NCBI GenBank assembly: GCA_046485185.1
Contig: JAWOHL010000005.1
Location: 27,605-91,604, forward strand
Origin: Candidatus Fermentibacteraceae bacterium
GTDB taxonomy: Bacteria; Fermentibacterota; Fermentibacteria; Fermentibacterales; JCC-6
Reading direction: 5' to 3'
DNA length: 64,000 bases
A model generated the notes under the pieces. That model was given only the letters and a program-made list of their open reading frames with translations. It was not told the origin of the DNA and did no database searches. Position 1 is the first letter of the stretch. Each line of letters begins with the position of its first letter. The position numbers and the translations under genes were made by a program. Below are positions 1 through 37,762 of this stretch, one piece after another.

Positions 1-672
1 GAGAACGCTGAGCCGGTCCTCGAGGTACTCCCGTGAAACCCAGATGTAGCTCATGCAAAGGGCCATCACCCCGGCGTAGTTCTCCACATCCCCGAAGAAA
101 GCCTGCATGAATCCCCCTGAGACCATCAGGAGAACGAAGAAGGGCCATCTTCTGCCGAGTTCACGGCATGCGAACAGTACCGTCACGAGAACGAAGACAA
201 ACCCCATCCCTGACGAATAAACCGAGTAGACCTTAAACGGGTTGAAACGAACGGGGTCGCCGAACGCCCGCCATATCGACCGGATGACAGAGCACGAAAG
301 CATCTCGTCCAGAGTTGCCCTGAATCCACCGCATAGAAGGTTGAACGTGTGCACCAGACCGTCATCGTTGACGAACCCGTTGGAAAGCAGCAGGAAGATG
401 ACAAAAGCCGGCAACGCCACGCCAAAGGAGTACACCGCGGCCCGCTTCAAAGGGACGGGGTCGTTGCCTGGCAACTGACGGCCCGATTTCTTCAGAAGCA
501 GCAGCCCACCGGCGAAGACCATGAAGATGCCCACCAAAGACAATGGTGCGATGTGCCTCAACTGGTTGAAACCGTAACGCGGTGATCCCGAAATGTACGC
601 GGAGTAAAGGTAGAACAGCAGCTGCAGGGCAGTCAGGACAATGATCGCAATGGTGGGGTTCCTCTGTTTCAT
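1..672 (-). CDS. polytopic membrane protein, function unknown (partial; start codon in window, gene continues past left edge)
   Basis: Manual reverse-complement translation from ATG (plus-strand CAT at 670-672) is open for 224 codons to position 1. GC3 is high. Several hydrophobic helices are present (IAIIVLTALQLLFYLY, SLVGIFMVFAGGLLLL, VALPAFVIFLLL, GMGFVFVLVTVLFA). It is absent from the ORF track only because it is truncated by the window edge. Confidence 0.5.
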   Translation of the reverse strand, partial: MKQRNPTIAIIVLTALQLLFYLYSAYISGSPRYGFNQLRHIAPLSLVGIFMVFAGGLLLLKKSGRQLPGNDPVPLKRAAVYSFGVALPAFVIFLLLSNGFVNDDGLVHTFNLLCGGFRATLDEMLSCSVIRSIWRAFGDPVRFNPFKVYSVYSSGMGFVFVLVTVLFACRELGRRWPFFVLLMVSGGFMQAFFGDVENYAGVMALCMSYIWVSREYLEDRLSVL

Positions 673-765: not shown

Positions 766-2916
766 TTGAGAGAAGTGAACACCATCTGCACCACGCCTCC
801 CGGGTGCCATTGCGGATGCGGGGTGTGTCTGAGCGTTTGCGATGGCCGGGTCACCGGTGTCAGGGGAAACCCTTCCAACCCCTACAACCGGGGTTACATG
901 TGCCGCAGGGGGCTTGCGGTCACCGGCACGCTCTACAATCCCGATCGCGTGCTTCACCCCATGGTCCGCACCAGAGCGGGGGAGTGGCGAAAAGCCCCCT
1001 GGAAGGAAGCCCTCGATCGTGCAGCTGATTCCTTTCTCGATGCCCGTGACAGATTCGGACCCCGTTCGGTGCTCTTCATGAAAGGTACCGGCCGGGACAT
1101 AGGCCCCTGGCTTTCACGTCTCGCGTACGGTTTCGGAACCCCCGAGTACTACGCGCTGGGACCCGGTTCGGGTTCCGCCTGCCTGATGCCGCGGATGAGC
1201 GTATGCACTTCCCTTTTCGGGGGCTGGTTCACAGCCGACTGCTCCCAGTACTTCTCTGACAGGTACGACAATCCTTCCTGGAGGCTTCCCCGGTGCATCC
1301 TTATCTGGGGCTCCAACCCCATTGTCTCGAACCCCGACGGTTTCCTGGGGAAGTGGATCATGGACTGCATCAGGATGGGGTCGAAACTGGTTGTGGTGGA
1401 CCCCAGGAACACATGGCTCGCCGGGCGGGCCGATGTTCACCTGCGGATCAGACCCGGTACCGACGGCGCCCTTGCCATGGCTTTTCTCAACAGGATGCAG
1501 GCCACCGGGAACTGGGACCACGATTTCACGCGCAAATGGGTAAGCGGTTGGGAAGAGGCTTTTCTGGCCTCCTCATCCTGGAGCCCCGAAGCGGCTTCCC
1601 GGGAGTGCGGCATTCCCTCTGAAACCATTGTCCGGGGGGCCGACCTCTGGCTGAATGCTTCACCGGCGGCGCTTCAATGGGGCGTTTCGGTTGACATGAG
1701 CGCTTCGGCGCTGGGTACGGCCCACGCCCTCGCCTCCCTTGTCGCCCTGTCTGGAAACCTGGATGTGCCGGGAGGGTGCGTTGTGGTTTCTGACCCCTTC
1801 GGGATACCCAGAAGGGGAGGCCTGGAAGCCCCCCCCGGGAAGACGGGCGCATCGCTTTACCCCATGACCACAATGGGTTACCCCTACGCCAGTTCTGATG
1901 TCCTTCTCGACGAGATGGAGGCGGGTAGGCATGTCGCCTGCGCCTGGGTGCAGGGTTCCGGGACCGTGGTGAACGGTTTCGCGGCGCCTGACAGGGCCGC
2001 ACGGCTTCTGTCGGGCATCGGCGAGGTGGTGGTCTGCGACCTTTTCATGACGACCACCGCCGAGCAGTTCGGAACGGTTTTCCTGCCTGTGGCCTGCTAC
2101 CCTGAGCGCAACGGCATTCGCAACTGGTGGTACCAGCTTGCTGCCGTGAACAAGGCCGTTCAGCCGTTGGGTGAGACCCGAAGCGACATGGAGATCGTTC
2201 TGGGTTTCGGCCGAAGGGTCGCACCTGAGCACTTTCCATGGACCGACGTCGAAGGCTGGTTCGACCATGTCCTTGAACCGTCGGGGATGAGTTGGAAGGA
2301 GCTTTCGGAAAGGGGATGGGTGATGCCCGGGATCATGTACAGCAAGCATGAATCGGGTCTCTCCAGGTCTGACAGGGAACCGGGGTTCCCGACCCCTTCG
2401 GGGAAGGTCGAGCTGCAGCCGATGATAATGGAGACGGCCGGTCTGCTTCCGGCCCCATGGTACGTGCCCCCTCCGGCTCTTTCCGAAGCACATCCGCTTA
2501 CGCTCTCAACAGGCGCCAGATCACCATTCTTCTTCCATTCCGAGCACAGGAACGTGAAGTGCCTTCTTGAAAGGAACCCTCTGCCGTTTGTGGAGGTAAA
2601 CCCTGTTGACGCCATGACCAGCGGCGTTCGCGAGGGGGAGTGGGTAACCCTGTCGTCACCCTGGGGAAGTTGCGGAAGGGTGGTCAGCATCACCGGGACC
2701 GTCCCGCCGGGCACCCTGATGGCACAGCACGGATGGTGGCCCCCCGGGCTGCCCGAGGCGACCGGCCGCCTCCTGAACATCAACAACCTGCTGCCCGCGG
2801 GCATGCAGGGCAGGGGCGGGCTGGGTTACCCGTTCAGGTGCATTCCCTGCGGCATCTCGCCCGGCCCGGCGCTTCTTCCGGTCAAAGAACCCCATGAAGG
2901 GAAAAACGGCGATTGA
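766..2916 (+). CDS. molybdopterin (Mo/W-bis-PGD) oxidoreductase catalytic subunit, MopB superfamily
   Basis: 716 aa. The N-terminal Cys cluster CHCGCGVCLSVC...GYMCRRG is the typical 4Fe-4S motif of formate-dehydrogenase/DMSO-reductase-like enzymes. SD GGGAGGA lies about 8 nt upstream of a TTG start. There is no twin-arginine signal, so it is probably cytoplasmic. Confidence 0.8.
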   Translation: MREVNTICTTPPGCHCGCGVCLSVCDGRVTGVRGNPSNPYNRGYMCRRGLAVTGTLYNPDRVLHPMVRTRAGEWRKAPWKEALDRAADSFLDARDRFGPRSVLFMKGTGRDIGPWLSRLAYGFGTPEYYALGPGSGSACLMPRMSVCTSLFGGWFTADCSQYFSDRYDNPSWRLPRCILIWGSNPIVSNPDGFLGKWIMDCIRMGSKLVVVDPRNTWLAGRADVHLRIRPGTDGALAMAFLNRMQATGNWDHDFTRKWVSGWEEAFLASSSWSPEAASRECGIPSETIVRGADLWLNASPAALQWGVSVDMSASALGTAHALASLVALSGNLDVPGGCVVVSDPFGIPRRGGLEAPPGKTGASLYPMTTMGYPYASSDVLLDEMEAGRHVACAWVQGSGTVVNGFAAPDRAARLLSGIGEVVVCDLFMTTTAEQFGTVFLPVACYPERNGIRNWWYQLAAVNKAVQPLGETRSDMEIVLGFGRRVAPEHFPWTDVEGWFDHVLEPSGMSWKELSERGWVMPGIMYSKHESGLSRSDREPGFPTPSGKVELQPMIMETAGLLPAPWYVPPPALSEAHPLTLSTGARSPFFFHSEHRNVKCLLERNPLPFVEVNPVDAMTSGVREGEWVTLSSPWGSCGRVVSITGTVPPGTLMAQHGWWPPGLPEATGRLLNINNLLPAGMQGRGGLGYPFRCIPCGISPGPALLPVKEPHEGKNGD

Positions 2917-3686
2917 ACATGCGTGGGGATGGTCTTTCGGGCTTCATGGAGTCCGTGCCGCAAAGGCTCGGGTTTCGCACTGCGGGACTCGGTGGAGTTC
3001 CGCTGGAAGAAGCCCTTGGCATGATCGCCGCAGCGGGGTACGCCCTGGTCGAGTTCTGCATGGAGCATCGGGATGCCTTGTCCTACAGTGGGAGCCTGTC
3101 CGGGCTTGGATTGTCGTCCGTGAGCTATCACGGGAAGAAAGACTCTCCGGATGTCCGTGAGAGAATGATCGATTCAGCAATCCGGAAAGCAGTCGAGCTC
3201 GGAGCCGGAGTTCTGGTCCTCGGTTCTCCCTTGAGTTGTCTTTGCAGCCGTGAGGCTTTCTTCGAGGAGTGCTTCAGAACGATGGATATGCTTCCCAAAA
3301 GCATACGACCCGCCTGGGAGCCCGAGCCGGGAACAGTTCTGAAAGATCTTGAGGCCTTTGGGGAACTTGCGGATCACCTGGGTGCAAAAGCCGGGCTCAA
3401 TCTCGATTTCGGGCACGCCTTTCTTGATGAATTGAGCCCTCCCGAGGCAGTGAAGTCATACGGAGACAGGATCCTGCACACGCACATCGAAGACATGGTT
3501 TGCGGGGTTCACAAGCACCTCATTCCCGGCCGGGGAGACTTTCCCTGGAAGGCCATGTTGCCGGCACTTGACGGGATACCTTATTCCGGACCACTTGTTG
3601 TTGACCTTTTCGAGCTTCCAGACGCTCCCGCGTCATATGTTAGGGCATCTTATGATGGAGTTCTCCGCGAACTGGGGGCTATATGA
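2913..3686 (+). CDS. sugar-phosphate isomerase/epimerase-like TIM-barrel protein (xylose-isomerase-like fold)
   Basis: 257 aa. HTHIED-type metal-binding motif and ELGAGVLVLG pattern. Its start overlaps the upstream stop by 4 nt (translational coupling). Confidence 0.6.
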   Translation: MNMRGDGLSGFMESVPQRLGFRTAGLGGVPLEEALGMIAAAGYALVEFCMEHRDALSYSGSLSGLGLSSVSYHGKKDSPDVRERMIDSAIRKAVELGAGVLVLGSPLSCLCSREAFFEECFRTMDMLPKSIRPAWEPEPGTVLKDLEAFGELADHLGAKAGLNLDFGHAFLDELSPPEAVKSYGDRILHTHIEDMVCGVHKHLIPGRGDFPWKAMLPALDGIPYSGPLVVDLFELPDAPASYVRASYDGVLRELGAI

Positions 3687-4717
3687 AGGCAAAGGGTTAT
3701 TCCATAGGGGTTGGCCTCACCTCCGCGTGTCCTTTCTCATGCAGTCACTGCTATTCGGGGGCCGGAAAGAATCCCGTGGATCTCGACCCATCAAGGTTGT
3801 TCCGCTTCATGGACAGCTTTCCGGCTTCGGCAATAAATCTCGGGACCGGTGAATCGTGCATGCACCCGCAGTTTCTGCCCGTTGTGAACGAAATCCTCGA
3901 TCGTGGGGTTCCTCTGGCGCTGACAACGGCTGGCCCCAGCCTTTCAGCGCTGCCCGACAGAATTCTGGAAAGACTGCATGATGTTGACCTGTCTCTCGAT
4001 TACCCCGTGGCTGAGCTTCATGACGCGGTGAGGGCGCCGGGTGCTTTCGGCATGGTCCTCGATGGAGTCCGGCGCTGCAGGGAGCTCGGGGTTACGGTTT
4101 CGCTGGCCATGTGCCTCATGAAGAGCAATGCGGAACACATGGAGGGGATGTGCCGTTTGGCCCGCGGTCTTGGCGTATCCCTCCGGGTCAACGTTTACAA
4201 GCCAGTTTTCAGCAATGATCCAAAACCTTCCTACAACGTGTTCTGGAACTCGGTTTCAACCCTTTTCAGTGAGACCGAAGTGGTTTCCTGCTCCGAACCC
4301 GTGGTGAATGCCGCACTGGCGTACCACGGCAACCCCTGTTCCTCCTCGGGGTCACCATGCGGGATCCACGGTTTTCGGGTCTCCCCGTTGGGAGAGGTTC
4401 TGCCCTGCGTCTACTGGGGACCCACGGGGATCAGCATGGAGCGGATCATCGACGAACCCGGCCTTCTGGAAGTGTGCGGAGGGATGTGTCACGGTGCAGC
4501 GCTGCCCGGCGACTGCTCGGACTGCCCCTGGAAAGGCTTCTGTACGGGAGGGTGCGCCGGAAGAAGGTATTACACCGGGCTTTCCGGCCCGGACGAGTAC
4601 TGCTTTCATCTTAGGGGCGTTCGTCCCCCCGAACTGGAACTTGCACCGGGAACCGGTGAAGGCTTCATCCACTCCGGGTATCTGTGCACGATGATCGGCC
4701 GACCAATTGGAAGCTGA
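3683..4717 (+). CDS. radical SAM enzyme with C-terminal SPASM domain (1 of 3 tandem)
   Basis: CPFSCSHC is a CX3CX2C motif. A GGEP-like region follows. C-terminal Cys-rich SPASM segment (CVYWG...CGGMC...CSDCPWKGFCTGGCAG). Overlaps upstream stop by 4 nt. Confidence 0.85.
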   Translation: MKAKGYSIGVGLTSACPFSCSHCYSGAGKNPVDLDPSRLFRFMDSFPASAINLGTGESCMHPQFLPVVNEILDRGVPLALTTAGPSLSALPDRILERLHDVDLSLDYPVAELHDAVRAPGAFGMVLDGVRRCRELGVTVSLAMCLMKSNAEHMEGMCRLARGLGVSLRVNVYKPVFSNDPKPSYNVFWNSVSTLFSETEVVSCSEPVVNAALAYHGNPCSSSGSPCGIHGFRVSPLGEVLPCVYWGPTGISMERIIDEPGLLEVCGGMCHGAALPGDCSDCPWKGFCTGGCAGRRYYTGLSGPDEYCFHLRGVRPPELELAPGTGEGFIHSGYLCTMIGRPIGS

Positions 4718-6023
4718 TGGTTTTCTTCACCGGTTCGTTTCCCCCGGGGGGGTGAGCGCTGTTTTCAACGCGCTCACGCTTGAGATCACAACGAATCCCC
4801 GGTTCGTGTCGCCCTTCGATCCTGAAACCGTTCTGGAGGGCTACAGGAGCTTCTGTTCATCTCCTTCAGTCACCATGGCGACTTTTTTCGTAACGGGAGA
4901 CTGTCCCCGAAAGTGTGGCTACTGTTTTGTGCCCCGCACACTGGGAACCATGACCGAAACCGAGGTCGATCACGGGCTTGCATTGCTTTCCGACCTTGCA
5001 CCGGGAAAAGCGGACGTACTCATTTACGGCGGTGAGCCGCTTCTCAAGCCTGAGATCGTGTTACGGATAATCCGTGGATCGGGGGATGACCGCAATCTGT
5101 GTCTGGCCACGGGCGGATGGGACCTTTCCCGGGATGTGGCCCATGCAATGGCGGAACGCAACGGCTTCGTGATAGTCAGCATCGACGGCGCAAGGGACGT
5201 TCACAACGATCTGCGACCTCTTTCGGAAGGTGATTCGTACGATTCCGCGGTGAAAACATTCCACGCCTTCCGTGACGCCGGTTGCCGGGTGGGGCTCAGT
5301 TTGACGGTCACGAAGGGGAATGCCCGCAGGGTCAGGGATGATTTCGGCTATCTGATGGAGACCCTGAGGCCTGATGACATGGGGTTGAACGCATGGATGC
5401 ATCCAAGGCCGGGTCTCGGTTCGAACCCTTTCGAAGCTCGCTGGGAGGATGTTTTCGAAGCCGTTACAGCCTCTCTCTCCGATGCCCTGGCAGCAGGGAT
5501 GTACGTTGAACAGCTCTTTCGGCGGCTCAGACCTCTCGTCACCCGCGCTCCAAGGCTAAGGGACTGTCCATCCAGGGGTGGCAGGCTCGTTTTCGTTCCC
5601 GGCGGCGGAGTGAGCCCGTGTGACTGCATGGCGGCTGCGGGAGTCAATACTGTTCGTGACCGGGAAGGCATTAAAAAGCTGCTTTTCGACTTTTCCACGC
5701 TCGTTCCCGTTTTCAGGGAAGGGTGCCTTTCCTGCCCCTGCGTTGCCCTCTGCGGCGGCGGGTGCCTTTACGACGCCCTTGCGTGTACCGGCTGCATTTC
5801 CGGTGTCCGCCAGGAAAGGTGCAGTTACGAGAGGGCCCTTCTCGGTTGGATGGTGGGCACCATCCTTGATAATCAACCCCGGGACAGGGCACCCGGGGTC
5901 CTGTCCATCGGGGAGATGACAGGCTTCCTCCCTGATGGAATCCTCGAAAAGGCCCGGATGCCGCAACCCGAGGCCATGCTTGGGGGGGAGATGATATGCC
6001 TGAAACGGGATGGGTCGAACTGA
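4707..6023 (+). CDS. radical SAM enzyme with SPASM domain (2 of 3 tandem)
   Basis: CPRKCGYC is a CX3CX2C motif. YGGEPLL. C-terminal CLSCPCVALCGGGC SPASM signature. Overlaps neighbours at both ends. Confidence 0.85.
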   Translation: MEADGFLHRFVSPGGVSAVFNALTLEITTNPRFVSPFDPETVLEGYRSFCSSPSVTMATFFVTGDCPRKCGYCFVPRTLGTMTETEVDHGLALLSDLAPGKADVLIYGGEPLLKPEIVLRIIRGSGDDRNLCLATGGWDLSRDVAHAMAERNGFVIVSIDGARDVHNDLRPLSEGDSYDSAVKTFHAFRDAGCRVGLSLTVTKGNARRVRDDFGYLMETLRPDDMGLNAWMHPRPGLGSNPFEARWEDVFEAVTASLSDALAAGMYVEQLFRRLRPLVTRAPRLRDCPSRGGRLVFVPGGGVSPCDCMAAAGVNTVRDREGIKKLLFDFSTLVPVFREGCLSCPCVALCGGGCLYDALACTGCISGVRQERCSYERALLGWMVGTILDNQPRDRAPGVLSIGEMTGFLPDGILEKARMPQPEAMLGGEMICLKRDGSN

Positions 6024-7171
6024 GGCACAACTGTTTTGTGAACCCTTTCTCAATCGAGTTCTTCTTTGGAGGGTCCCCCCCGGCGGACGGGCCTGTCTCA
6101 CCGCCACCCGAGCCGTCGCTTCGGCTCAGGGCGGTACAGGCGGTCGTAACGGGGAGATGCAACCTGATGTGTTCGTACTGCAGCGCCAGGATAGCGGGGG
6201 GGTTCAAGGGTGACATGGATCACGCCACCCTCGATGCGGTACTCTCACACTCCGATCCCGATTCTTTGCTTCTCGTGACCGGGGGCGAGCCTCTTCTGCA
6301 CCCAAAGGCCGTCAGAACGCTGATCCGGGGCTGGAGCGGGCAGTCCGTTCTTTTCACCAATGGCGCCCTTCTCGACAGAAGGACAGCCCTCTTTCTGAAG
6401 GAACACGGTACGGCGCTGGTCGTCTCGATGGATGGCTTCGAAAGTGAACACAACCGCTTCAGGGGCGATTCCTGGAAGGCCGCAGCGGCAGCCCTCGATC
6501 TGGCGCGTGAAACGGGTTTGCCCGCCGGGATCTCACTGGTCGCGGGGTCGCATAACGCCGGGTCGCTTCCGGAAAGCCTCTACGGGCTTCTTAAGAGATT
6601 CAAGCCAGCAAGTTTCGGGGTCAACATACAGCACTACACCCCCGATGCTTTCTCTCCCATCAGCGCCGATGAGTATTCTCGGATAATCCTCGGTGCGTAC
6701 AGGTTCAGCCTGGAAACGGGTGTGTTCGTCGACCAGGTTGCCAGGAGGCTGCTGCCCATCGTTACAGGGCATTTCCGGCACAGGGACTGCGCTGCCCAGG
6801 GTGGGAAGATCGTTTTCCGACCGGATGGCTCCGCCAGCAGTTGTGTTAACACAAGGGGAATCGAGCAGTGGGGAAACAGAAATCCGGTTAACTACCCGGT
6901 TTGCGCGGGTTGCCCTGCGCTTGGCGTCTGCGGCGGAGGGTGTACCTGGGACGGTATTCACCTGACCTCCGATGGTTGTGGCCCGGACCCCAGGAACTGC
7001 GTCTGGACACTCGATCTTCTCAGGGCTGTTTCCGAAACCGTTGAGGAGAGGCTTCCCCGTTCCGTCGCGCGACCGTCCCGCAGTTTCCTTGCCTCACTCT
7101 TCGAAAACCTCTGCAGAAGGGCTGGCGCGCCACTTGCGCAGTCGCTCGGACACGGGGAGGAAGACCGGTGA
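5996..7171 (+). CDS. radical SAM enzyme with SPASM domain (3 of 3 tandem)
   Basis: CNLMCSYC is a CX3CX2C motif. TGGEPLL. C-terminal CAGCPALGVCGGGC SPASM signature. Confidence 0.85.
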   Translation: MPETGWVELRHNCFVNPFSIEFFFGGSPPADGPVSPPPEPSLRLRAVQAVVTGRCNLMCSYCSARIAGGFKGDMDHATLDAVLSHSDPDSLLLVTGGEPLLHPKAVRTLIRGWSGQSVLFTNGALLDRRTALFLKEHGTALVVSMDGFESEHNRFRGDSWKAAAAALDLARETGLPAGISLVAGSHNAGSLPESLYGLLKRFKPASFGVNIQHYTPDAFSPISADEYSRIILGAYRFSLETGVFVDQVARRLLPIVTGHFRHRDCAAQGGKIVFRPDGSASSCVNTRGIEQWGNRNPVNYPVCAGCPALGVCGGGCTWDGIHLTSDGCGPDPRNCVWTLDLLRAVSETVEERLPRSVARPSRSFLASLFENLCRRAGAPLAQSLGHGEEDR

Positions 7172-7779
7172 AAGGCTGGAGCAGGGAGAAGGCGGCGGCT
7201 TACTCCGAGGGAAGGCGCCCTTCCCCGGCTGACGATTGTGTGGTTGACACCCTTCTGGGGAGGGAACGCATTCTGGAGCTTGGGTGCGGCCCGGCACTGG
7301 TATCCGGCAGGCTATCTGCTTCGCAACTGGTGTGTACCGACATTACCGAGGCCTTTCTACCGGTGGCAAGAGTTAACGCACCTGCGTCAACAGTTTTGTG
7401 CGCTGATCCGGTGAAGCTTCCCTTCAGACTCGGGGTGTTCGACACGGTTCTTGCCATGGCCGTCCTTCATCACCTGGAAAGGTCGGACCTTGATGCGGCG
7501 CTCCAGGAATCCCATCGGGTTCTGAACCCCAGGGGCTGGTTCCTGCTCCTCGAGGACTGGTCTTTCACCGATCCCACTCCGGTCGAAATGGAAGCGAAGC
7601 AGGCTCGTTTTGAAAAAGGTCACGACGAGTTCCACCTGACCTGGGCCGAATGGGACGAAGTCTTTAGGAACTCGGGATTCGTGCTTCTGAAACGGCAGTG
7701 GCCCGAAAGGTTTTTTGGTGATCCCTCCGAAAAAAGAAGGGTGCGGATGATGGCTGCCCTTTATTCAAGGCTTCCCTGA
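7168..7779 (+). CDS. class I SAM-dependent methyltransferase
   Basis: ILELGCGPA is the glycine-rich motif I. About 200 aa Rossmann-like pattern. ATGA overlap with upstream gene. Confidence 0.7.
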   Translation: MKGWSREKAAAYSEGRRPSPADDCVVDTLLGRERILELGCGPALVSGRLSASQLVCTDITEAFLPVARVNAPASTVLCADPVKLPFRLGVFDTVLAMAVLHHLERSDLDAALQESHRVLNPRGWFLLLEDWSFTDPTPVEMEAKQARFEKGHDEFHLTWAEWDEVFRNSGFVLLKRQWPERFFGDPSEKRRVRMMAALYSRLP

Positions 7780-7823: not shown

Positions 7824-8921
7824 GTGGCGCCTCTGGGATTGCTGTCCGTGGCATCGTCCATGCCGGGCGGTGTGGAAATAGTTGACCTGAACGTCTGCAA
7901 TGATCCCCTCCGCATGCTCTCAGAGAAGCTTGATTCCCTGAAACCAGATGTGGTGGGTATCTCCCTTCGAAATGCCGACACAACTAACGCTTTCGATCCG
8001 TACAGCTATCTCCCCGCTTTTCTTTTGCAGCTGCGCATCGTTGCCGAAAGGGCTCCACGGGCGGAGATTCGCGCTGGAGGGGCTGGTTACAGCCTCTTCC
8101 ACCGGGAACTGGAGGCCGAAGCGCGTGTGATCAGCGAGGGAACCGTTGGCCATCATGAAAACAGCATTCCATTGCCCTCCTGGGACCTGATCGACCTTGA
8201 GCCCTACCTTCCGTTCCAGAAAAACCTGTCCATTGGTGTGGAAGTCAGCCGGGGCTGCGATCTCAATTGCTCATACTGTGTCTACCCGTCACTTTCCGGG
8301 GTGCGCAAGCAGGACAAACCGCCGGAAGACATCCGCTCCGAAGTGCTTATGCTGAGGGCCAGGGGAGTGAGGCATCTGTTCCTGTGCGCTCCCGTTCTGA
8401 ACCACAGACCCGGAAGAGGCGAGGAAGTGGCGCAAGCAATGGCCGGAACGGGTGTGACCTGGGAGGCTTACCACTCCCCGCTGGGTTTTTCAGAAAGCTA
8501 CGCAAGCCTTGCCCGGGAATCGGGTTGCACCGCGATCAGTTTCAGCCCTGACGGCGGTAGTGATTTCGACATGAAGGCCCTCGGGAAAGACTTCACAACC
8601 CGGGATGTAAGGATTGCGGTCGGAAATGCATCGCGGGAAGGTCTTAAAGTGTACATAAGCCTGTTCCCATACCTTCCCTGGTCATCACCTGTGGCCATGA
8701 GCAGGGCGTTCATTTCGGGAAGGAGGTGGGGAAAAGTGGCCGGGGCCGGTCTCGCCAGGTTGCGCTTCGGCGCCGTGCGAAGGCTTCCTGGAAGCGCGTT
8801 CGGTCCGGGCAAACCGGCGCTTCACGGTGCTGTTCCCCCAGGTGAGTTCGTTCTGCCCCAAAGGCCCTGGATGACCCTTTTCAGGTTCTTCAGGGCGGCA
8901 TTTGAAAAGCGTCCGGGTTGA
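7824..8921 (+). CDS. cobalamin (B12)-binding-domain radical SAM protein
   Basis: N-terminal B12-binding-like region (VEIVDLNV...PDVVGISL) followed by CDLNCSYC (CX3CX2C). The first in-frame start after the upstream stop is GTG at 7824, so the N-terminus may be slightly short. Confidence 0.7.
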   Translation: MAPLGLLSVASSMPGGVEIVDLNVCNDPLRMLSEKLDSLKPDVVGISLRNADTTNAFDPYSYLPAFLLQLRIVAERAPRAEIRAGGAGYSLFHRELEAEARVISEGTVGHHENSIPLPSWDLIDLEPYLPFQKNLSIGVEVSRGCDLNCSYCVYPSLSGVRKQDKPPEDIRSEVLMLRARGVRHLFLCAPVLNHRPGRGEEVAQAMAGTGVTWEAYHSPLGFSESYASLARESGCTAISFSPDGGSDFDMKALGKDFTTRDVRIAVGNASREGLKVYISLFPYLPWSSPVAMSRAFISGRRWGKVAGAGLARLRFGAVRRLPGSAFGPGKPALHGAVPPGEFVLPQRPWMTLFRFFRAAFEKRPG

Positions 8922-9417
8922 TTCCCATGCCGGGTTCTTCCATTCTGGATACCAGAACTCCCGCAAACTCCGAGTCCCTTTTCATAACCTGTCTGATCCC
9001 CGCCTTCCCCGACCATGCAAGCCGCAGGGTAGCAACAACTGTTCCGGTGGAGAGGACAGTCAGTTCGCCGGGTGTACCGTATATCGGAAGAAGATCGAGT
9101 GGAAATGCGAACGGGGCGCACGAGCTGAATAGGTGGCCACCGCGAAGGGTGTAAAGGAAGTAGGGAAGTCTTGCCTCTACTATGGTTTCGAACCTTATTG
9201 TGTGAAATGCGCTGCCGCCGTCCCTGAAGGCCCCCGCCCAAAGCTTTTTTCCGGATATGACAGTGAAGGAACTTTCGATGGGCTTTTCCCTGCGTATGGA
9301 AAGGGGGGAAACTGGAAACTGCGTCTCCCAATTCATCGTTCCTTCGGGCATCCTTACTTCTGTGACGTCCCTTTCTTCTCTTGTTCCCACCATTGGACCC
9401 TCCCTTGATGTCACCAT
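8890..9417 (-). CDS. hypothetical protein (atypical lower-GC composition)
   Basis: 175-aa ORF convergent with the B12-rSAM gene and divergent from the NTP-transferase, sharing an AT-richer 130-nt intergenic region. Sequence is protein-like, but GC3 is lower than in neighbouring genes, and an overlapping + strand 91-aa ORF competes. Confidence 0.35.
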   Translation of the reverse strand: MVTSREGPMVGTREERDVTEVRMPEGTMNWETQFPVSPLSIRREKPIESSFTVISGKKLWAGAFRDGGSAFHTIRFETIVEARLPYFLYTLRGGHLFSSCAPFAFPLDLLPIYGTPGELTVLSTGTVVATLRLAWSGKAGIRQVMKRDSEFAGVLVSRMEEPGMGINPDAFQMPP

Positions 9418-9551
9418 GATGGGGCGGTTCTGTTAAGGCTGTGTTTCCCGTTTGTGAATTGACTTTCACGCAGGCTGTTCCTTATTGTCATTAAGAAGAA
9501 GCCCTGTGCTCGTAGATCTGGACCATCCACTCTCTAAGTATCGATTGGAAA

Positions 9552-10265
9552 ATGGCTTACCACAACAAACTTAGTTATCTAAGTCCGTCCCCCATAGTTC
9601 TTGCGGCGGGAGGGGGGAGGAGGATGGGGGGGGTGGAGAAGGCGTGCCTGAAAGTGGGTGGGAGAAGTCTTCTGGAGCGGCATTTCGGTAACTTCGCCGC
9701 GTTGGGTGTCACTGCGGACAGGGTTTCGGTGGTGTACGGCACCGAGGGTGTGAGGCTTGAGACTGAAAGGCTGGGCGGCAGGCCGGTGAAGTCGGGTTTG
9801 CCCGGCGCTCCGGGAACCCTGGGCTCGTTCATGGCTGTTTTTCCGTCCGGGGAGTGCCTCGTGGTCCATGGCGACCTTCTCTGGGAACCTTCAATGGCCT
9901 TTACCGCAATGAAGTGCCCTGGCGACGCTGTGATACCCGTCGATCCCCTGTCGGTCGATCGCGAGGCCATGAAGGCCGAGGTATACGGGGGATTGCTTGT
10001 CAGGCTGTCCAAGGACCTGAAGCCCGCGGAGTGCTCGGGCGAGTCCATGGGCATGTTCCTTTTCCGGGGGCATGTTCTGCCCGACCTCCGTGCCTGCTGT
10101 ACGAAGGCCGCAATGGAATTTGGTTGCCGGGCCGCGCTTGACGATGCTGTGACCTTTCTTGCTCAGGTCAGGAAGGTTGCCGTGGTTTTCGTTCCCGGAA
10201 GCAGGTGGGACGAGATTGACACCCCGGACGACCTGGCAAGGGCTGAAAGGGTATTCAATGGGTGA
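9552..10265 (+). CDS. MobA-like / sugar-alcohol-phosphate nucleotidyltransferase (NTP_transferase fold)
   Basis: LAAGGGRRMGG matches the (L)AGGxGxRMG NTP-binding motif, and the C-terminal EIDTPDDL is MobA/IPCT-like. Only ATG 9552 precedes the conserved motif. Confidence 0.7.
   Translation: MAYHNKLSYLSPSPIVLAAGGGRRMGGVEKACLKVGGRSLLERHFGNFAALGVTADRVSVVYGTEGVRLETERLGGRPVKSGLPGAPGTLGSFMAVFPSGECLVVHGDLLWEPSMAFTAMKCPGDAVIPVDPLSVDREAMKAEVYGGLLVRLSKDLKPAECSGESMGMFLFRGHVLPDLRACCTKAAMEFGCRAALDDAVTFLAQVRKVAVVFVPGSRWDEIDTPDDLARAERVFNG
9555..9595. repeat. direct repeat copy 1 (GCTTACCA..AAC..AGTTATCTAAGTCCGTCCCCCAT), 23-nt perfect core at 9573-9595
   Basis: Same core 23-mer recurs at 12790-12812 with an imperfect ~15-nt 5' extension. 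It lies inside the first 15 codons of the NTP-transferase CDS. Confidence 0.8.
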
Positions 10266-11013
10266 GATCAACGCATGGGACCAGGTATGGAAGGATTTTC
10301 CAACCGGTGGCCCGTTGCATGGTCTGGGTGAGTTCCTCTCCCGGCGGGCGGAACTGAAGCGGCTCGTCGTGACCGAGGTCTTCCGCGGGGCGCGGGTGCC
10401 CCCTGACGGCACGGTTCTCGAGGCCGGATGCGGAACGGGCAGCGTCATGGGTCTTCTCGCCGAAAGGGGTTTCCGCGTTGTGGGTGTTGATCTGTCCCCC
10501 GCCGCGCTTGTGCATGCCGCGTCGCATTCCCGTGAGCTTTCGGTCGCGACCGTCACCAGCCTCCCCTTCGCCAACGGAGCCTTCGACCTGGTGTACAGCA
10601 CGGGAGTTTTCGACCTTCTGGACGAACAAGACCTTTTCAGTGCGGTGGGGGAGGCGCTTCGGGTAACGGCCCCCGGTGGGCGGATCGTTCTTGTAACCGC
10701 GGCGCCCTGCCGGCTTCACCGCCGTGTCATGGGCCGCCTTGAAAGAAAGAACAGGTGGAGGTACGGCCCCAAAAGGGAGATCAAGTCATTGTCCGGTATC
10801 GTACTGGGTCACCGTCCCGATGCCCTGGTGAGGGAAAAGGGAAGAGGCTTCGCCCTTCAGCTCAGATTCCTGGTCTACCTTGTGGAGCACCGGCCGCTTC
10901 TCCGAAGGCTTTCACATGGTCTCTTCATGCTGGTCTCGATGCTTCTGTGGCCTCTTAACGCCCTGCCCGGGATGGTTCTGGTCACCACGGTGCAGTTACC
11001 GAAGGAGGCTTGA
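10258..11013 (+). CDS. class I SAM-dependent methyltransferase with C-terminal hydrophobic tail
   Basis: VLEAGCGTGSVMG is motif I. The ORF-track start at 10159 overlaps the upstream gene by about 100 nt. ATG at 10258 (ATGGGTGA overlap with the upstream stop) is the more likely start. Confidence 0.7.
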   Translation: MGEINAWDQVWKDFPTGGPLHGLGEFLSRRAELKRLVVTEVFRGARVPPDGTVLEAGCGTGSVMGLLAERGFRVVGVDLSPAALVHAASHSRELSVATVTSLPFANGAFDLVYSTGVFDLLDEQDLFSAVGEALRVTAPGGRIVLVTAAPCRLHRRVMGRLERKNRWRYGPKREIKSLSGIVLGHRPDALVREKGRGFALQLRFLVYLVEHRPLLRRLSHGLFMLVSMLLWPLNALPGMVLVTTVQLPKEA

Positions 11014-11765
11014 TGAAGTCCGTCCGGGAATTGAAAAGCGTCTGTCAGCCTCCCGGTCTGGATATGTGCCTTTACAGGCGGTTCGTGATCAGGCCCGTGA
11101 GCATTCATCTCACGAGGTTATTCATTGCCGCGGGTATCGGGGCTGACACGGTCTCGGTCATCAAAGGGGTCATCGCCCTGGCCGGTGCAGTGCTTTTCGG
11201 GCTGCGACCCCTTCCCGCTGCTCTGCTGCTTCAGTTCTCCTTCCTCCTCGATGCCTGCGACGGCGAAGTTGCCCGCTTTACGGGAAGCTGCTCACGGGCC
11301 CGGGGCGAGTACATCGACAAACTTGGGGATGCGGGTTCCCGCAGCATTTTCCATCTCTCCTGGGGGATAGGCGCCTTCCTTGCCGGGGGAGGATGGCCCG
11401 CCCTGGCGGCGGGTGCGGTGGTGGGATGCCTTTGGCTCACAGTGAGGTTCTGCTCTGTTGAAACCCTTCTTGAAAGCTTTTCGAACCATTCGGGCTCCGA
11501 GGGCTCAGCCGGGGAGAAGGCCGCGCTCGAAAAACTGTTTGTCAGAGATCCCGGGTCGGGAAGGATCGAGCACTTTTTCTCACTCCTCATCCACCCATGG
11601 GTGAACCTTGCCCTGCTGGCGGCCGTATCATCCCTTTTCACATACCGTGGGGTCTCCGGCCTTACAGTCCTTTTGTGGGCCTACACCGGGCTCTGGCTGG
11701 CAAACACCGTTCGCAAGGTCATCACATGCGCCGATGTAATGAACTTCAGGCGCCGCGACCCGTGA
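11010..11765 (+). CDS. CDP-alcohol phosphatidyltransferase family integral membrane protein
   Basis: DACDGEVAR...GEYIDKLGD matches the family signature D-x2-DG-x2-AR...G-x3-D-x3-D. Several TM helices. ATGA overlap with upstream gene. Confidence 0.8.
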   Translation: MMKSVRELKSVCQPPGLDMCLYRRFVIRPVSIHLTRLFIAAGIGADTVSVIKGVIALAGAVLFGLRPLPAALLLQFSFLLDACDGEVARFTGSCSRARGEYIDKLGDAGSRSIFHLSWGIGAFLAGGGWPALAAGAVVGCLWLTVRFCSVETLLESFSNHSGSEGSAGEKAALEKLFVRDPGSGRIEHFFSLLIHPWVNLALLAAVSSLFTYRGVSGLTVLLWAYTGLWLANTVRKVITCADVMNFRRRDP

Positions 11766-12703
11766 ACGCGCTCCTTGCATTGATTGGGTCGGTGCTGGCC
11801 GTTGTGAACTCAGGGGCCGACCGGGTTCTGCACCTCTCCGGAACGCCGGTGGGTATCACAGCTGTCGGAGGGGAATACTGGGTGGTTACCTGCGTTGATC
11901 CGGCGGGTGTTTTCCTTCTGGACCGAAGCGGCTGGACTGTTTCTGAGTATCCCGGTGACTTCCGCGAGCCCCAGGGGACAGGATTGCTCGGAGATGAGCC
12001 TCTGGTGTGCGACAGGGGAGCGAACCGCCTTCATGTAGGTTTTCCCGGGGTCTCCAGAGCGGTGGAACTGCCGGGAGGGCCTTTTGCCGTGACGACGGCG
12101 GACTGGACCGGGAACGGGGAACGGACTGCAGTGGTTACGCTGAGGGATTCGGGTCAGGTGGTCCTCGTGACGGAAAACGGGGCGTTGGTTCTGGCTGCGC
12201 TGCCGGGCGCCCGGACGGCAGCCGCGGTCGACACGGATGGCGATGGCGACGATGAACTGCTTGTAGCGTGCTGCGGGACCGGGCTTCACCTGGTGGTTAA
12301 CCCTGAAGACGGGGGCGAACCTATCGTGAGGCGAATCGGAGTTCTGGGTGATGGCGTTAAGGCATTGGCCACCCTTGATATGGATGCCGACGGCGACCCC
12401 GATGCGGTGGGGATAGCGTGCGCCGAGGGAGGCGTGTGCTGGTGGGAAAACCCCGGCCCGAGCGGTTCGGAATGGTCAAGGCACGACCTTGACCCCGGGG
12501 TCTCGGGCCCCAAATCCATCGCGGTATCCGGCGAAAGGATCCTTGTGTCGGCGCTGTTCAGCCCGTCAATGCTCTACGGCCCAGGTGAGATCAGTTACCT
12601 GCCCCGGGGTTGCACGGCATGCGCCTTCGGCGCTGAAGGGACATTCGTTCTGGCGCATCGCGCAGGCTTCATCATGGAGTTCACGGCAGCCCCTTCTCCT
12701 TGA
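11762..12703 (+). CDS. secreted FG-GAP/VCBS-repeat protein
   Basis: Likely GTG start at 11762 (GTGA overlap) giving a signal-peptide-like N-terminus VNALLALIGSVLAVV. Asp-rich Ca-binding repeats DTDGDGDDELLV and DMDADGDPDAVGI. The ORF-track start at 11597 is probably an upstream extension. Confidence 0.6.
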   Translation: MNALLALIGSVLAVVNSGADRVLHLSGTPVGITAVGGEYWVVTCVDPAGVFLLDRSGWTVSEYPGDFREPQGTGLLGDEPLVCDRGANRLHVGFPGVSRAVELPGGPFAVTTADWTGNGERTAVVTLRDSGQVVLVTENGALVLAALPGARTAAAVDTDGDGDDELLVACCGTGLHLVVNPEDGGEPIVRRIGVLGDGVKALATLDMDADGDPDAVGIACAEGGVCWWENPGPSGSEWSRHDLDPGVSGPKSIAVSGERILVSALFSPSMLYGPGEISYLPRGCTACAFGAEGTFVLAHRAGFIMEFTAAPSP

Positions 12704-35325: not shown

Positions 35326-36107
35326 TGGAACACCTCCCGATCATACTGGCGGGAACTGCCCTTCTGTTCTGCTTTTTCTTCGCCACAAGGCTTTTAAAGT
35401 CTCCGTTCTGGAAGAGAAGGCAGCTCCGAAAAGCGTCACTGATGGCGGCCCGGGGCAACATAACCGCCATGACCGGCTACCTCAGGGCCAACATGGACAG
35501 GGGCAGGGTTTCGTGCCCACTCACCAACGCACTGGTGTACTTCTATATACGCTCCGGTGATCTGGACAGCGCCGAAAAGATAGTAACCGACGCCATGGGC
35601 AGGGGCGACAGCTCCGGTGGCGCACTCGCTCAGCTTGCGTACATTGCCCAGGGCCGCAGCGAATGGGAAAACGCCGAGAAGCTCTACAGAAAAGCCATGG
35701 AGGCTGAGCCGTCCCTGGCCCCCACGCTGGGGATGAACATCGCGGGCTCCCTGATCCAGCGCAACACACGGCTCGATGAAGCCGAAGACCTTCTGAACCA
35801 GGCTCTCGATTCAGAGAACGGGCCGTCGCGGAGTTCGGTCCACCTGAACCTCGCCATGCTGAACTCACTGCGGGGAAGCCACTCTCAGGCCAAAGTCCAT
35901 GCCCTCACGGCGTACGAACTCATGCAGGACCTCGAGATCACCCGCCTTGGAAGGGCTCAGGCGCTGGGTCTCGCCGCCGGGGCATCCAGAAAGATGAAGG
36001 ATCCGGTCGAAGCGGCGAGGCTCTCCCAGAAGGCCCTGAAAGTCATGGGGGATCTGTCAGGCGCGGAGAGGCTTCGTACAGAGCTTCAGGAAATGGCTGG
36101 CAGTTGA
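35325..36107 (+). CDS. TPR-repeat membrane-anchored protein
   Basis: N-terminal TM helix followed by TPR-like helical repeats. Confidence 0.55.
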   Translation: MEHLPIILAGTALLFCFFFATRLLKSPFWKRRQLRKASLMAARGNITAMTGYLRANMDRGRVSCPLTNALVYFYIRSGDLDSAEKIVTDAMGRGDSSGGALAQLAYIAQGRSEWENAEKLYRKAMEAEPSLAPTLGMNIAGSLIQRNTRLDEAEDLLNQALDSENGPSRSSVHLNLAMLNSLRGSHSQAKVHALTAYELMQDLEITRLGRAQALGLAAGASRKMKDPVEAARLSQKALKVMGDLSGAERLRTELQEMAGS

Positions 36108-37036
36108 GGAAGGCTCTATGGGCTGTCATTCTGGGAGTGGTGGTCTATACGGCGCTGGTGCTGAGGTCCGACGTGTCCAGGGTGGGCCGGGCCATTTCAG
36201 CTATCCATCCCGCATGGATCCCGGTCTTTCTGGCGCTTCCCCTCTCGAACTACTTCTTCAGGTTCCTGAAGTGGAACTACTTCCTGCGCAGGGTCGGGGT
36301 TTTTATCCCCAAAGGCGAGAGCCTGGCGGTCTTCATCGCAGGTTTCTCCATGACGGTATCGCCCGGCAAGTTCGGTGAGCTCGTTAAATGCGTCATCCTG
36401 AAGGAGAGGCGGGGAGTGCCCGTTTCAATCACCAGCCCCGTGGTGGTGGCTGAGCGGATCACCGACCTTCTCAGCATGGTGTGCCTGGCCGCGGCCGGCG
36501 CGGCCCTTTCGGGGGGCGGTGCGGTGCTTCCCGCCATCGCTGCCGGGGTGGTCTTCGTGTCGTCGGCCATGGTCTTTCTTCTCTGGACCCCGGCGTGGCG
36601 GCTGGCGGCACGGACCGCCTCCCGGCTTCCCGTGCTGAAAACGAGAACCGAAGCCCTCGAAGACTTCAGACAGTCCGCCATTATCCTTCTGGACTTCAGA
36701 AGCATGCTGTTTTCGGTTCCCCTTGGGATTCTGGGATGGGGTCTCGAAGCGCTTGTTCTGTGCGCCGTTGCTGCCTCGATGGGGGTTTCCCTTCCGGCCG
36801 GAGTCGCGCTTCTCAGCCATGCCGCAGGAACCATTGCCGGCGCCGTAAGCATGATCCCCGGAGGCCTGGGCCTCACCGAGCTGACAATAGACGGGATCCT
36901 GGGCGGCTCGATGCCCCACGCTCAGGCGGCTGTCACCACGCTGCTCATGCGCTTCTGTACGTTATGGTTCGGGGTTCTGCTGGGACTGGCATTCATTGCG
37001 GTGCTGGGAAGAAAAACAGGTACGAAAACCAGATGA
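36104..37036 (+). CDS. lysyl-PG-synthase-TM-like 'flippase-like domain' membrane protein (UPF0104 family)
   Basis: About 8 TM helices. Conserved FxGFSMTVSPGKFGELVKCVIL...AERITDLL pattern of the LPG_synthase_TM family. Confidence 0.65.
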   Translation: MRKALWAVILGVVVYTALVLRSDVSRVGRAISAIHPAWIPVFLALPLSNYFFRFLKWNYFLRRVGVFIPKGESLAVFIAGFSMTVSPGKFGELVKCVILKERRGVPVSITSPVVVAERITDLLSMVCLAAAGAALSGGGAVLPAIAAGVVFVSSAMVFLLWTPAWRLAARTASRLPVLKTRTEALEDFRQSAIILLDFRSMLFSVPLGILGWGLEALVLCAVAASMGVSLPAGVALLSHAAGTIAGAVSMIPGGLGLTELTIDGILGGSMPHAQAAVTTLLMRFCTLWFGVLLGLAFIAVLGRKTGTKTR

Positions 37037-37366: not shown

Positions 37367-37762
37367 CTAATGCCAGCGCAACCTTCTGACAATGGCGCAG
37401 TGAACCCTTACCGCAATTTCCGGAACATTTTCGGCCCACAGGGCTCTTCTGCAGAGCGGGCGGTACTTCCGGCGCCTCAGTACACCGATTACTACCGGTA
37501 CGGTATCGAATTGTTCCAGAAGCAACGGAGCGTCCCTTCCCGAACGGTCTCCCGCGGTGTAAAGAAGAACACGCCCGCCCCTTTTCACGGTTCGGACCAC
37601 CCTGTGAACTACCTGATCCTTCGTTCCGTGACCGAGAACCACGACCTGCCCCGGAAGAACACTTGAAACCGGTTGCCGCATCGCCCTGAGGATGTCGCCG
37701 GGTATCAGGGCCGGCCACATCGAAAGCCCCCTCACGAAGCCCCTCATGTATTCCGAAGCCAT
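37367..37762 (-). CDS. ER/archaeal-type (S26B-like) signal-peptidase-like small protease
   Basis: GLSMWPALIPGDI matches the SPase I Ser box (SM-x-P-x-L-x-x-GD). The later VHRVV sits where Lys-dyad enzymes have KRV, suggesting a Ser/His dyad as in SipW/Sec11. 131 aa. Confidence 0.5.
   Translation of the reverse strand: MASEYMRGFVRGLSMWPALIPGDILRAMRQPVSSVLPGQVVVLGHGTKDQVVHRVVRTVKRGGRVLLYTAGDRSGRDAPLLLEQFDTVPVVIGVLRRRKYRPLCRRALWAENVPEIAVRVHCAIVRRLRWH

Follow-up and report, generated by a model that had tools for sequence, protein, structure and literature searches.

Activation of an alcohol phosphate by cytidine triphosphate (CTP), followed by transfer from the resulting cytidine diphosphate (CDP)-alcohol, makes many phospholipid headgroups and the solutes of the di-myo-inositol phosphate (DIP) family. 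In fosfomycin biosynthesis, the cytidylyltransferase domain of Fom1 puts a cytidylyl group on a small phosphate or phosphonate for tailoring by the B12-type radical S-adenosylmethionine (rSAM) enzyme Fom3. The bifunctional IPCT/DIPPS of Archaeoglobus fulgidus (AF0263, PDB 4mnd; IPCT domain 2xme; NCBIfam NF041135) activates an alcohol phosphate with CTP and then transfers it to a hydroxyl. PntC and LicC form cytidine monophosphate (CMP)-2-aminoethylphosphonate and CDP-choline (PDB 6pd1/6pd2; PMC6697681); AF2299 (PDB 4o6m/4o6n) uses a soluble CDP-alcohol, with CDP-glycerol bound in the crystal, and does not process lipids (PMC4634129); and a putative alternative inositol-lipid cluster of the Bacteroides vulgatus type, also found in Prevotella, combines an NTP transferase, a CDP-alcohol phosphatidyltransferase and a HAD hydrolase (Heaver et al. 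2022, PMC9246714). Here, we analyse a predicted split equivalent of IPCT/DIPPS, with the same cytidylyltransferase fold, eight-residue CDP-alcohol signature and two-step logic, in a 64,000-nucleotide stretch of a Candidatus Fermentibacteraceae bacterium (assembly GCA_046485185.1, contig JAWOHL010000005.1, positions 27,605 to 91,604; hereafter the window). The four open reading frames (ORFs) originally predicted on the plus strand at positions 9552-12703 are all present, and encode an NTP-transferase (G1), a class I methyltransferase (G2, or MT2), a CDP-alcohol phosphotransferase (G3) and an FG-GAP protein (G4). The first three belong to a cluster of ten genes that is conserved across lineages of uncultured bacteria (Table 1).

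By sequence and modelled structure, G1 is a predicted small-molecule cytidylyltransferase of the IPCT/PntC/LicC type, whose nucleotide would be CTP. It has the full-length fold of ~230 aa, the N-terminal LAAGxGxR...K motif (LAAGGGRRMGG at residues 17-27) and the C-terminal W-x-E/D-I/V-D motif of this class, and residues L17, A18, A19, G20, R24, K30, E221, D223 and D227 are invariant. The Pfam family that it matches, NTP_transf_3 (48 bits, cut-off 27), is described as 'MobA-like', and the original prediction accordingly named MobA, IPCT and CofC as the families to be told apart. The best NCBIfam match was the IPCT half of NF041135 over residues 15-234 (47.1 bits, cut-off 580), and in a sequence search of the PDB the A. 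fulgidus IPCT (2xme, 4mnd) came first, aligned end to end. In contrast, the NCBIfam models for MobA, MocA and IspD matched only the N-terminal nucleotide loop, with MobA TIGR02665 reaching 24 bits over residues 14-45 against a full-length cut-off of 151.85 bits, and MobA chains in the PDB aligned to residues 14-78 only. An AlphaFold (AF2) model based on 18 homologues (pLDDT 91) retrieved PntC first in Foldseek (TM-score 0.82), then IPCT-DIPPS and then the IPCTs of A. fulgidus and Thermotoga maritima (TM-scores 0.70-0.76), with MurU, ST0452 and RmlA ranked behind them. No MobA was found among the top 50 Foldseek matches, and neither the Pfam nor the NCBIfam search gave a CofC family at E ≤ 0.01, so the classification falls on the IPCT-like side and not with MobA. 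The DVU_1551 NTP-transferase family, together with the DVU_1556 methyltransferase family, was considered and dropped: scores were 27-65 bits against cut-offs of 155-315, and the matches covered only the N-terminal or Rossmann part.

G3 carries the complete CDP-alcohol phosphotransferase signature that had been claimed for it, D80-A-C-D83-G84-E-V-A87-R88-(9 residues)-G98-E-Y-I-D102-K-L-G-D106, with all eight conserved residues. Translated in all six frames, the window contains a single instance of this pattern, and no second CDP-alcohol transferase was found in it; the eight residues are unchanged in 15 orthologues of 46-76% identity; a basic motif, N231-x-x-R234-K235, is also invariant. The match to Pfam CDP-OH_P_transf (PF01066) is marginal at 22.9 bits (cut-off 22), and many orthologues have no precomputed match to this family. 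As a single sequence, G3 was closest among NCBIfam models to archaetidylinositol-phosphate synthase (AIPS; NF040950, 37.8 bits, cut-off 180), with DIPPS (NF041135, 24.4 bits, cut-off 580), PIPS (NF045883, 19.7 bits, cut-off 170), archaetidylserine synthase and PssA also matching far below their cut-offs; as G1 and G3 are separate genes, the pair does not form the fused IPCT-DIPPS that NF041135 describes. All 15 orthologues matched AIPS, PIPS, DIPPS and PssA weakly, and none matched a PgsA model at E ≤ 0.01. In the JGI annotation, 'phosphatidylglycerophosphate synthase' serves as a generic COG label.

Profile and fold searches with G3 gave the same order of relatives. Against PDB sequences, the family profile scored 41.7 bits with AF2299, 25.5 with IPCT-DIPPS and 21.7 with PIPS, and an AlphaFold (AF2) model (pLDDT 81; about six transmembrane helices plus an insertion) again ranked AF2299, IPCT-DIPPS and PIPS in that order, with CDP-alcohol phosphotransferases of the same polytopic helical fold making up all of the top 19 Foldseek matches (probability 1.00, TM-scores 0.44-0.59). 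The nearest relatives are therefore AF2299, DIPPS, AIPS and PIPS, and not PgsA as a housekeeping reading had supposed. Searched against 1.84 billion representatives, the profile found 6467 relatives at E<1e-3 and only seven at E<1e-30, which makes G3 a very narrow clade in a large superfamily of 240-290 aa proteins. Among the distant members of this superfamily are a CDP-OH::HAD fusion whose gene neighbours include TagF-like genes and a flippase gene, and a protein encoded within a Wzy/glycosyltransferase/MurJ cluster. In one rearranged cluster (L038, 725-1546, minus strand), the CDP-alcohol transferase homologue keeps the first two aspartates and the G, A, R and G of the signature, but its last two aspartates are replaced by E and A, and it may be inactive or mechanistically divergent.

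The methyltransferase encoded between these two enzymes, G2, matches Pfam Methyltransf_11 at 70 bits and has a conserved hydrophobic C-terminal extension of ~60 aa. Although such a methyltransferase was noted from the outset as foreign to the known systems, it proved to be a conserved member of the module, and in two independent assemblies (L004 and L005) it is fused to G1 as a single 497-aa protein, in whose N-terminal half IPCT is again the best match (NF041135, 66 bits). Fusion of G1 and G2 in one lineage indicates that they catalyse consecutive steps. A match of G2 to plant phosphoethanolamine N-methyltransferase (35-41 bits) was no better than those to unrelated class I methyltransferases and was not used.

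In line with the translational coupling first proposed, every start codon within the cassette overlaps the stop codon of the preceding gene. G2 most likely starts at ATG 10258, overlapping G1 by 8 nt, rather than at TTG 10159 of the mechanically called ORF. The start of G3 (ATG 11013, with TTG 11010 as a possible alternative) shares 1 nt with the G2 stop in TGATG and is preceded by GAAGGAGG. For G4, GTG 11762, in a GTGA overlap, is most likely the start, as in its orthologues, and not ATG 11597. The cassette was described as lying directly downstream of the rSAM/B12 operon, which is not literally so: a 630-bp spacer (8921-9552) intervenes in this genome, and carries a minus-strand ORF of 175 aa (8890-9417) whose conservation, at 51-86%, is limited to the closest Fermentibacteraceae loci, with no counterpart in the Aegiribacteria, Sabulitectum and LCP-89 loci. 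This ORF resembles an insertion specific to the lineage; the upstream block and the cassette abut or overlap in more distant relatives. A sigma-70-like pattern match precedes G1 (Table 1), and an Rfam scan at gathering thresholds across the entire window, spacer included, found no riboswitch or other RNA. At the other end, a divergent gene (1-672, minus strand) separated by an intergenic gap of ~95 bp places the beginning of the cluster at the MopB gene.

Linkage of the cassette to its upstream genes was traced through context look-ups and a tblastn table. In a species-representative genome collection, all close G3 loci belonged to Fermentibacterota (Fermentibacteraceae, Hyd24-12 UBA6080, Aegiribacteria and Sabulitectum), and every Fermentibacterota locus with enough flanking sequence carried the same array, down to 37-50% identity: MopB, TIM barrel, rSAM1, rSAM2, rSAM3, MT1, B12-rSAM, NTP-transferase, MT2, CDP-alcohol transferase, in some loci a MobA-like gene, and FG-GAP. 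The B12-rSAM gene of Aegiribacteria overlaps that for the NTP-transferase. In candidate division LCP-89 bacterium B3_LCP (L037), the order is B12-rSAM, MopB, TIM barrel, rSAM1-3, MT1, NTP-transferase, MT2 and CDP-alcohol transferase, and the same order recurs on unassigned contigs (L031/L032 and L059-L061) at 28-43% identity, with cluster proteins of LCP-89 and the unassigned contigs together spanning 28-47%. The B12-rSAM gene thus moves, from between MT1 and G1 in the window to a position before MopB in LCP-89-like loci, where MT1 directly precedes the NTP-transferase, whereas the order of NTP-transferase, methyltransferase and CDP-alcohol transferase is invariant. In L038, the core is rearranged on two strands. 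Despite such rearrangements, the cassette always travels with the MopB, TIM-barrel and rSAM genes across lineages, as co-occurrence with the upstream operon would require. The conserved core consists of nine genes plus a B12-type rSAM gene of variable position, and the cassette is the 3′ end of this core plus a lineage-specific accessory gene. On a 90%-identical metagenome contig (L052, 10001-14428), the cluster breaks inside the CDP-alcohol transferase gene at about residue 101 and is followed by signal peptidase, MscS, RadC and FG-GAP genes as one inverted block, which is either an inversion or a misassembly.

Table 1. Genes and other features of the cluster and of its surroundings; positions are those of the window unless a sister locus is named.
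Feature	Positions	Strand	Remarks
G1, NTP-transferase, predicted cytidylyltransferase for a small alcohol phosphate or phosphonate	9552-10265	+	237 aa; IPCT/PntC/LicC type
G2 (MT2), class I SAM methyltransferase	10258-11013	+	Methyltransf_11
G3, CDP-alcohol phosphotransferase, narrow clade related to AF2299 and DIPPS	11013-11765	+	CDP-OH_P_transf
G4, FG-GAP beta-propeller-type protein with N-terminal hydrophobic segment	11762-12703	+	FG-GAP_3; lineage-specific accessory
MopB-family molybdopterin enzyme, first gene of the cluster	766-2916	+	Pfam Molybdopterin, Molydop_binding, Molybdop_Fe4S4
Xylose-isomerase-like TIM barrel, sugar(-phosphate) isomerase/epimerase/dehydratase type	2913-3686	+	Pfam AP_endonuc_2, 62 bits
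Radical SAM/SPASM-like enzyme 1 (rSAM1)	3683-4717	+	Pfam Radical_SAM
Radical SAM/SPASM-like enzyme 2 (rSAM2)	4707-6023	+	Pfam Radical_SAM and Fer4_12; all NCBIfam matches far below cut-offs
Radical SAM/SPASM-like enzyme 3 (rSAM3)	5996-7171	+	Pfam Radical_SAM
MT1, class I SAM methyltransferase, paralogue of G2	7168-7779	+	Methyltransf_11, 66.6 bits
B12-binding-domain radical SAM enzyme (B12-rSAM)	7824-8921	+	Pfam Radical_SAM
175-aa ORF in the spacer	8890-9417	-	No Pfam or NCBIfam match
Sigma-70-like promoter match (TTGACT, 18 nt, TATTGT) upstream of G1	9459-9488	+	Consensus scan; pattern match only
MobA-like gene of sister loci	L004 10783-11385; L011 10750-11277; also L012, L015, L019, L022		TIGR02665
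Polytopic membrane protein	1-672	-	Divergent from MopB; runs off the window start; no NCBIfam match
Flippase-like LPG_synthase_TM protein	36104-37036	+	TIGR00374, 74.7 bits, above cut-off 43.2
SynChlorMet-like cassette	37744-40323	-	Unrelated to the cluster by position
HprK-related, ScmC-like protein	37744-38271	-	
ScmF-like rSAM/SPASM	38264-39322	-	233 bits, cut-off 400
ScmE-like rSAM/SPASM	39280-40323	-	144 bits

None of the ten cluster proteins reaches the cut-off of any curated NCBIfam model, and the upstream enzymes point loosely, through their homologies, to chemistry on a sugar, polyol or cyclitol. The MopB protein starts directly at its Fe4S4 domain, no electron-transfer partner subunit is encoded in the cluster, and acetylene hydratase (2e7z) ranks first among its PDB matches, ahead of thiosulfate/polysulfide reductase and FdhF. 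It is kept at 52-92% identity in all Fermentibacterota loci and at 36-47% in LCP-89-like loci. A 1017-aa protein (P0204, representing eight member sequences) fuses a MopB domain, 60% identical to that of the window, to the TIM barrel, an indication that both enzymes act together. The TIM barrel, which like rSAM1-3 is conserved in all cluster loci, has weak NCBIfam matches to inosose dehydratase IolE, IolO and psicose epimerase, and weak PDB matches to ketose 3-epimerases. B12-rSAM scores 26.8 bits against Pfam B12-binding, below its cut-off of 32.1, and is closest in NCBIfam to BzaD (133 bits) and to 'lipid biosynthesis B12/rSAM' models, with rSAM_ladder_B12 at 104 bits, all again below cut-off; its best PDB match is the diol dehydratase AprD4 (6fd2, 39.8 bits). 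In the PDB, rSAM3 matched 8vpo and the cytosylglucuronate decarboxylase BlsE (27 bits), and other matches of the TIM barrel and rSAM enzymes included SkfB and anSME. As all these matches are weak and generic, they do not identify the substrate. A 5.4-Mb genome (L036) has MopB paralogues 39-41% identical to that of the window in repeated arrays with a small 4Fe-4S protein, a major facilitator superfamily transporter and a LuxR/MalT-type regulator, and does not have the cluster, so this MopB clade is broader than the pathway; these arrays presumably resemble the catechol-dehydroxylase loci of Eggerthellaceae.

Two further genes accompany the core in part of its range. In about half of the sister loci, a gene of 172-200 aa lies between G3 and G4, with MobA TIGR02665 as its full-length best match (61-83 bits); it is missing from the window. 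Since this distinct MobA-like gene coexists with G1 orthologues, MobA function, where encoded, belongs to a different gene than G1, and it probably serves the MopB enzyme of the cluster. G4 matches Pfam FG-GAP_3 (PF13517) at 34.3 bits (cut-off 26.9), shows DxDxDG-type loops and has a hydrophobic N-terminal stretch at residues 1-19, from which secretion is plausible. Its inclusion in the cassette holds in so far as the gene is present and overlaps G3: homologues of 30-82% identity occur in Fermentibacterota loci, with the GTGA overlap throughout. It does not hold for the core, as the gene is absent from the non-Fermentibacterota loci L031, L032, L037 and L059-L061.

We consider the chances to be about even that G1-G3 carry out the last part, activation and transfer, of one biosynthetic pathway encoded by some ten genes, whose product is a lipid headgroup or an envelope decoration. 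Starting from a phosphorylated primary metabolite, for which a sugar or polyol phosphate is the most plausible candidate, the upstream enzymes would make an unusual alcohol phosphate, X-P, which would be deoxygenated and/or C- or O-methylated. G1 would then form CDP-X from X-P and CTP, as IPCT, PntC and LicC do with their own substrates; G2 would methylate X before or after this step; and G3, as an integral-membrane enzyme, would move phospho-X from CDP-X to an acceptor hydroxyl, with release of CMP and formation of a phosphodiester. Tailoring by rSAM enzymes might also act on a CMP-linked intermediate, as with Fom3. The analysis shows the domain identities, the complete catalytic signature, the predicted folds, the exclusion of MobA and PgsA and the linkage of the genes across lineages; from homology and gene context we infer the steps themselves, and with them the direction in which the pathway runs, CTP as the nucleotide, the acceptor and what X is.

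Most likely, the product remains in the membrane or cell envelope and is not a solute free in the cytoplasm. This is favoured because a gene for an extracytoplasmic-looking FG-GAP protein overlaps G3, because G2 has its conserved hydrophobic C-terminal extension, because distant members of the G3 superfamily sit in polysaccharide/exopolysaccharide, glycan and lipid clusters, because the cluster has no phosphatase, which a DIPP-type route to a solute needs (nor was one found elsewhere in the window), and because the hosts include mesophilic organisms of anaerobic digesters (PMC5030696). Several observations weigh against an envelope pathway of this kind. With about six transmembrane helices and an insertion, G3 disfavours a simple Kennedy-type transfer to diacylglycerol; scores far below curated-family cut-offs weaken any substrate assignment by homology; and rSAM1-3 otherwise score best against peptide maturases, albeit far below cut-offs. 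No kinase, sugar-phosphate cyclase, MIPS or phosphoenolpyruvate (PEP) mutase was found in the cluster or the 64 kb window, which leaves the origin of X-P unexplained. The opposite-strand ORF separates the cassette from the upstream genes here, so that co-transcription is not guaranteed, and neither the FG-GAP gene nor the MobA-like gene is universal in cluster loci.

More tentatively, and with somewhat less than an even chance, the ten genes could be a complete and undescribed pathway that builds a structurally new, rSAM-tailored and methylated cyclitol- or polyol-phosphate and, through a CDP intermediate, attaches it to give membrane-lipid headgroups or envelope phosphodiesters of a new class. 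If so, such a product could explain the polar lipids with orphan headgroups that are seen in anoxic sediments and digesters, and a molybdenum or tungsten enzyme would gain a biosynthetic role. If the product belongs to the lipids or the envelope, it would be a biomarker candidate for Fermentibacterota and LCP-89 in sediments and digesters, and would open a way to new rSAM chemistry on small molecules that are phosphorylated or linked to CDP. With its conserved core, its fusions and the clear negative outcomes for MobA and PgsA, the system lends itself to a direct test by heterologous expression.

The same activation and transfer chemistry could instead end in a soluble cytoplasmic phosphodiester, a compatible solute like DIP, diglycerol phosphate or glycerophosphoinositol made from the rSAM-tailored alcohol, which we regard as unlikely though the strongest of the alternatives. 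The nearest relatives of G3, AF2299 and DIPPS, use soluble CDP-alcohol donors and neither processes lipids, and the six-helix architecture is linked to soluble acceptors, diacylglycerol-accepting enzymes having three or four further helices (PMC4634129). The N231-x-x-R234-K235 motif could bind a phosphorylated acceptor, and some hosts, such as Aegiribacteria and Sabulitectum, come from marine or saline sediments. Against this stand the missing phosphatase, the overlap of G3 with the FG-GAP gene and the hydrophobic tail of G2, as well as the cost of ten genes, including four for rSAM enzymes and one for a Mo/W enzyme, for a bulk osmolyte. To our knowledge, DIP-type phosphodiester solutes belong to (hyper)thermophiles, whereas the hosts here include mesophilic digester bacteria.

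Considerably less probable is a scheme in which G3 is a PIPS- or AIPS-like enzyme, with CDP-diacylglycerol as donor and the tailored alcohol (phosphate) as acceptor, and in which G1, instead of feeding G3, adds a CMP handle for the rSAM enzymes, as in the Fom1/Fom3 precedent for rSAM chemistry on CMP-linked intermediates. AIPS as the best single-sequence match of G3, the matches of all 15 orthologues to PIPS and an architecture of six transmembrane helices suited to enzymes with a lipid donor and a soluble acceptor would fit such a donor, and the B12-rSAM gene adjoins G1 in Fermentibacterota. Profile and fold searches, however, place AF2299 and DIPPS above PIPS; the order of NTP-transferase, methyltransferase and CDP-alcohol transferase stays fixed while the B12-rSAM gene moves; no hydrolase is present for removal of the CMP; and pairs of NTP-transferase and CDP-alcohol transferase recur without rSAM genes, as in L039 and the B. 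vulgatus-type cluster (PMC9246714).

We find it very doubtful, and slightly more so than the CMP-handle scheme, that the rSAM/SPASM enzymes and methyltransferases mature a ribosomally synthesised and post-translationally modified peptide (RiPP), a protein or a cofactor, MopB itself for instance, with the NTP- and CDP-alcohol transferases decorating that product or acting elsewhere. The best NCBIfam matches of rSAM1-3 are peptide or metalloenzyme maturases such as MftC (73 bits, for rSAM1), PapB, FibroRumin and a W-cofactor maturase, and many loci have a MobA-like gene inside the cluster, but those rSAM scores lie three- to seven-fold below cut-offs, and the homologies of the TIM barrel and the NTP-transferase point to small sugar-like substrates. 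A RiPP precursor was looked for and excluded by the lack of room between the genes, which in these loci either overlap or are spaced by no more than 110 nt. Finally, a chance juxtaposition of a MobA serving the upstream MopB with a housekeeping PgsA, suggested by the 'MobA-like' Pfam family of G1 in a MopB-bearing cluster, is hardly credible and already contradicted, as MobA similarity is confined to residues 14-78 of G1 and the Foldseek top 50 contains no MobA, many loci have a separate MobA-like gene beside the G1 orthologue, no PgsA match occurs in the 15 G3 orthologues, seven close relatives among 1.84 billion representatives are atypical of a housekeeping enzyme, and the linkage is retained across lineages.

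The remainder of the window holds housekeeping genes and a SynChlorMet-like cassette. Its flippase-like LPG_synthase_TM gene lies 23 kb from the cassette, next to penicillin-binding protein and tetratricopeptide repeat genes; homologues accompany NTP-transferase/CDP-alcohol transferase pairs in L039 and in Bacteroidetes inositol clusters.

A search of the full-text literature found no paper on this cluster, no curated family or solved structure was found to cover it, and the Hyd24-12 genome paper makes no mention of the relevant terms. The catalytic logic is known, so that the cluster is not categorically new, and its likeness to each described system has limits. In contrast to the single polypeptide of IPCT/DIPPS, the cassette has separate genes with a methyltransferase between them, sometimes fused to the NTP-transferase; scores against that family are 24-66 bits for a cut-off of 580, and G3 differs from DIPPS by nine rather than eight residues between AR and G, a 35-residue insertion and a distinct C-terminal half. 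The cassette is also embedded in an rSAM/MopB cluster in mesophilic hosts, with no MIPS nearby. AF2299 is the best profile and fold match of G3, but shares just 18-20% identity with it and has its own N-terminal cytidylyltransferase-like domain, and its physiological product is itself not established. The B. vulgatus-type cluster is likewise a split bacterial pair, for which a Kennedy-like route via CDP-inositol has been proposed and is experimentally unconfirmed; unlike the cluster described here, it lies beside MIPS and includes a HAD hydrolase, without methyltransferase, rSAM, MopB or TIM-barrel genes (PMC9246714). Related minimal modules occur in L039 and L028, the pair in L039, a soil contig, adjoining a flippase-like gene without rSAM genes.

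PntC, the best structural match of the G1 model at a sequence identity of ~20%, and LicC activate small head-group-like phosphates or phosphonates bound for cell-surface molecules, but no PEP mutase, 2-aminoethylphosphonate transaminase or choline kinase is encoded in the cluster or the window. The transferases downstream of PntC and LicC are often of the LicD type rather than CDP-OH_P_transf. In the Fom pathway, the CMP is finally hydrolysed and not used for transfer, and there is no CDP-alcohol transferase. The module thus differs in four respects from every described system: the methyltransferase that is obligately inserted, and sometimes fused, in it; the very narrow clade of G3, with its own C-terminal half; its invariable coupling with a Mo/W enzyme, a TIM barrel, a second methyltransferase and the four rSAM enzymes; and its distribution in uncultured anaerobes of the FCB group. 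In these never-cultured phyla, the familiar CDP-alcohol logic is joined to a Mo/W enzyme, two methyltransferases and four radical SAM enzymes.

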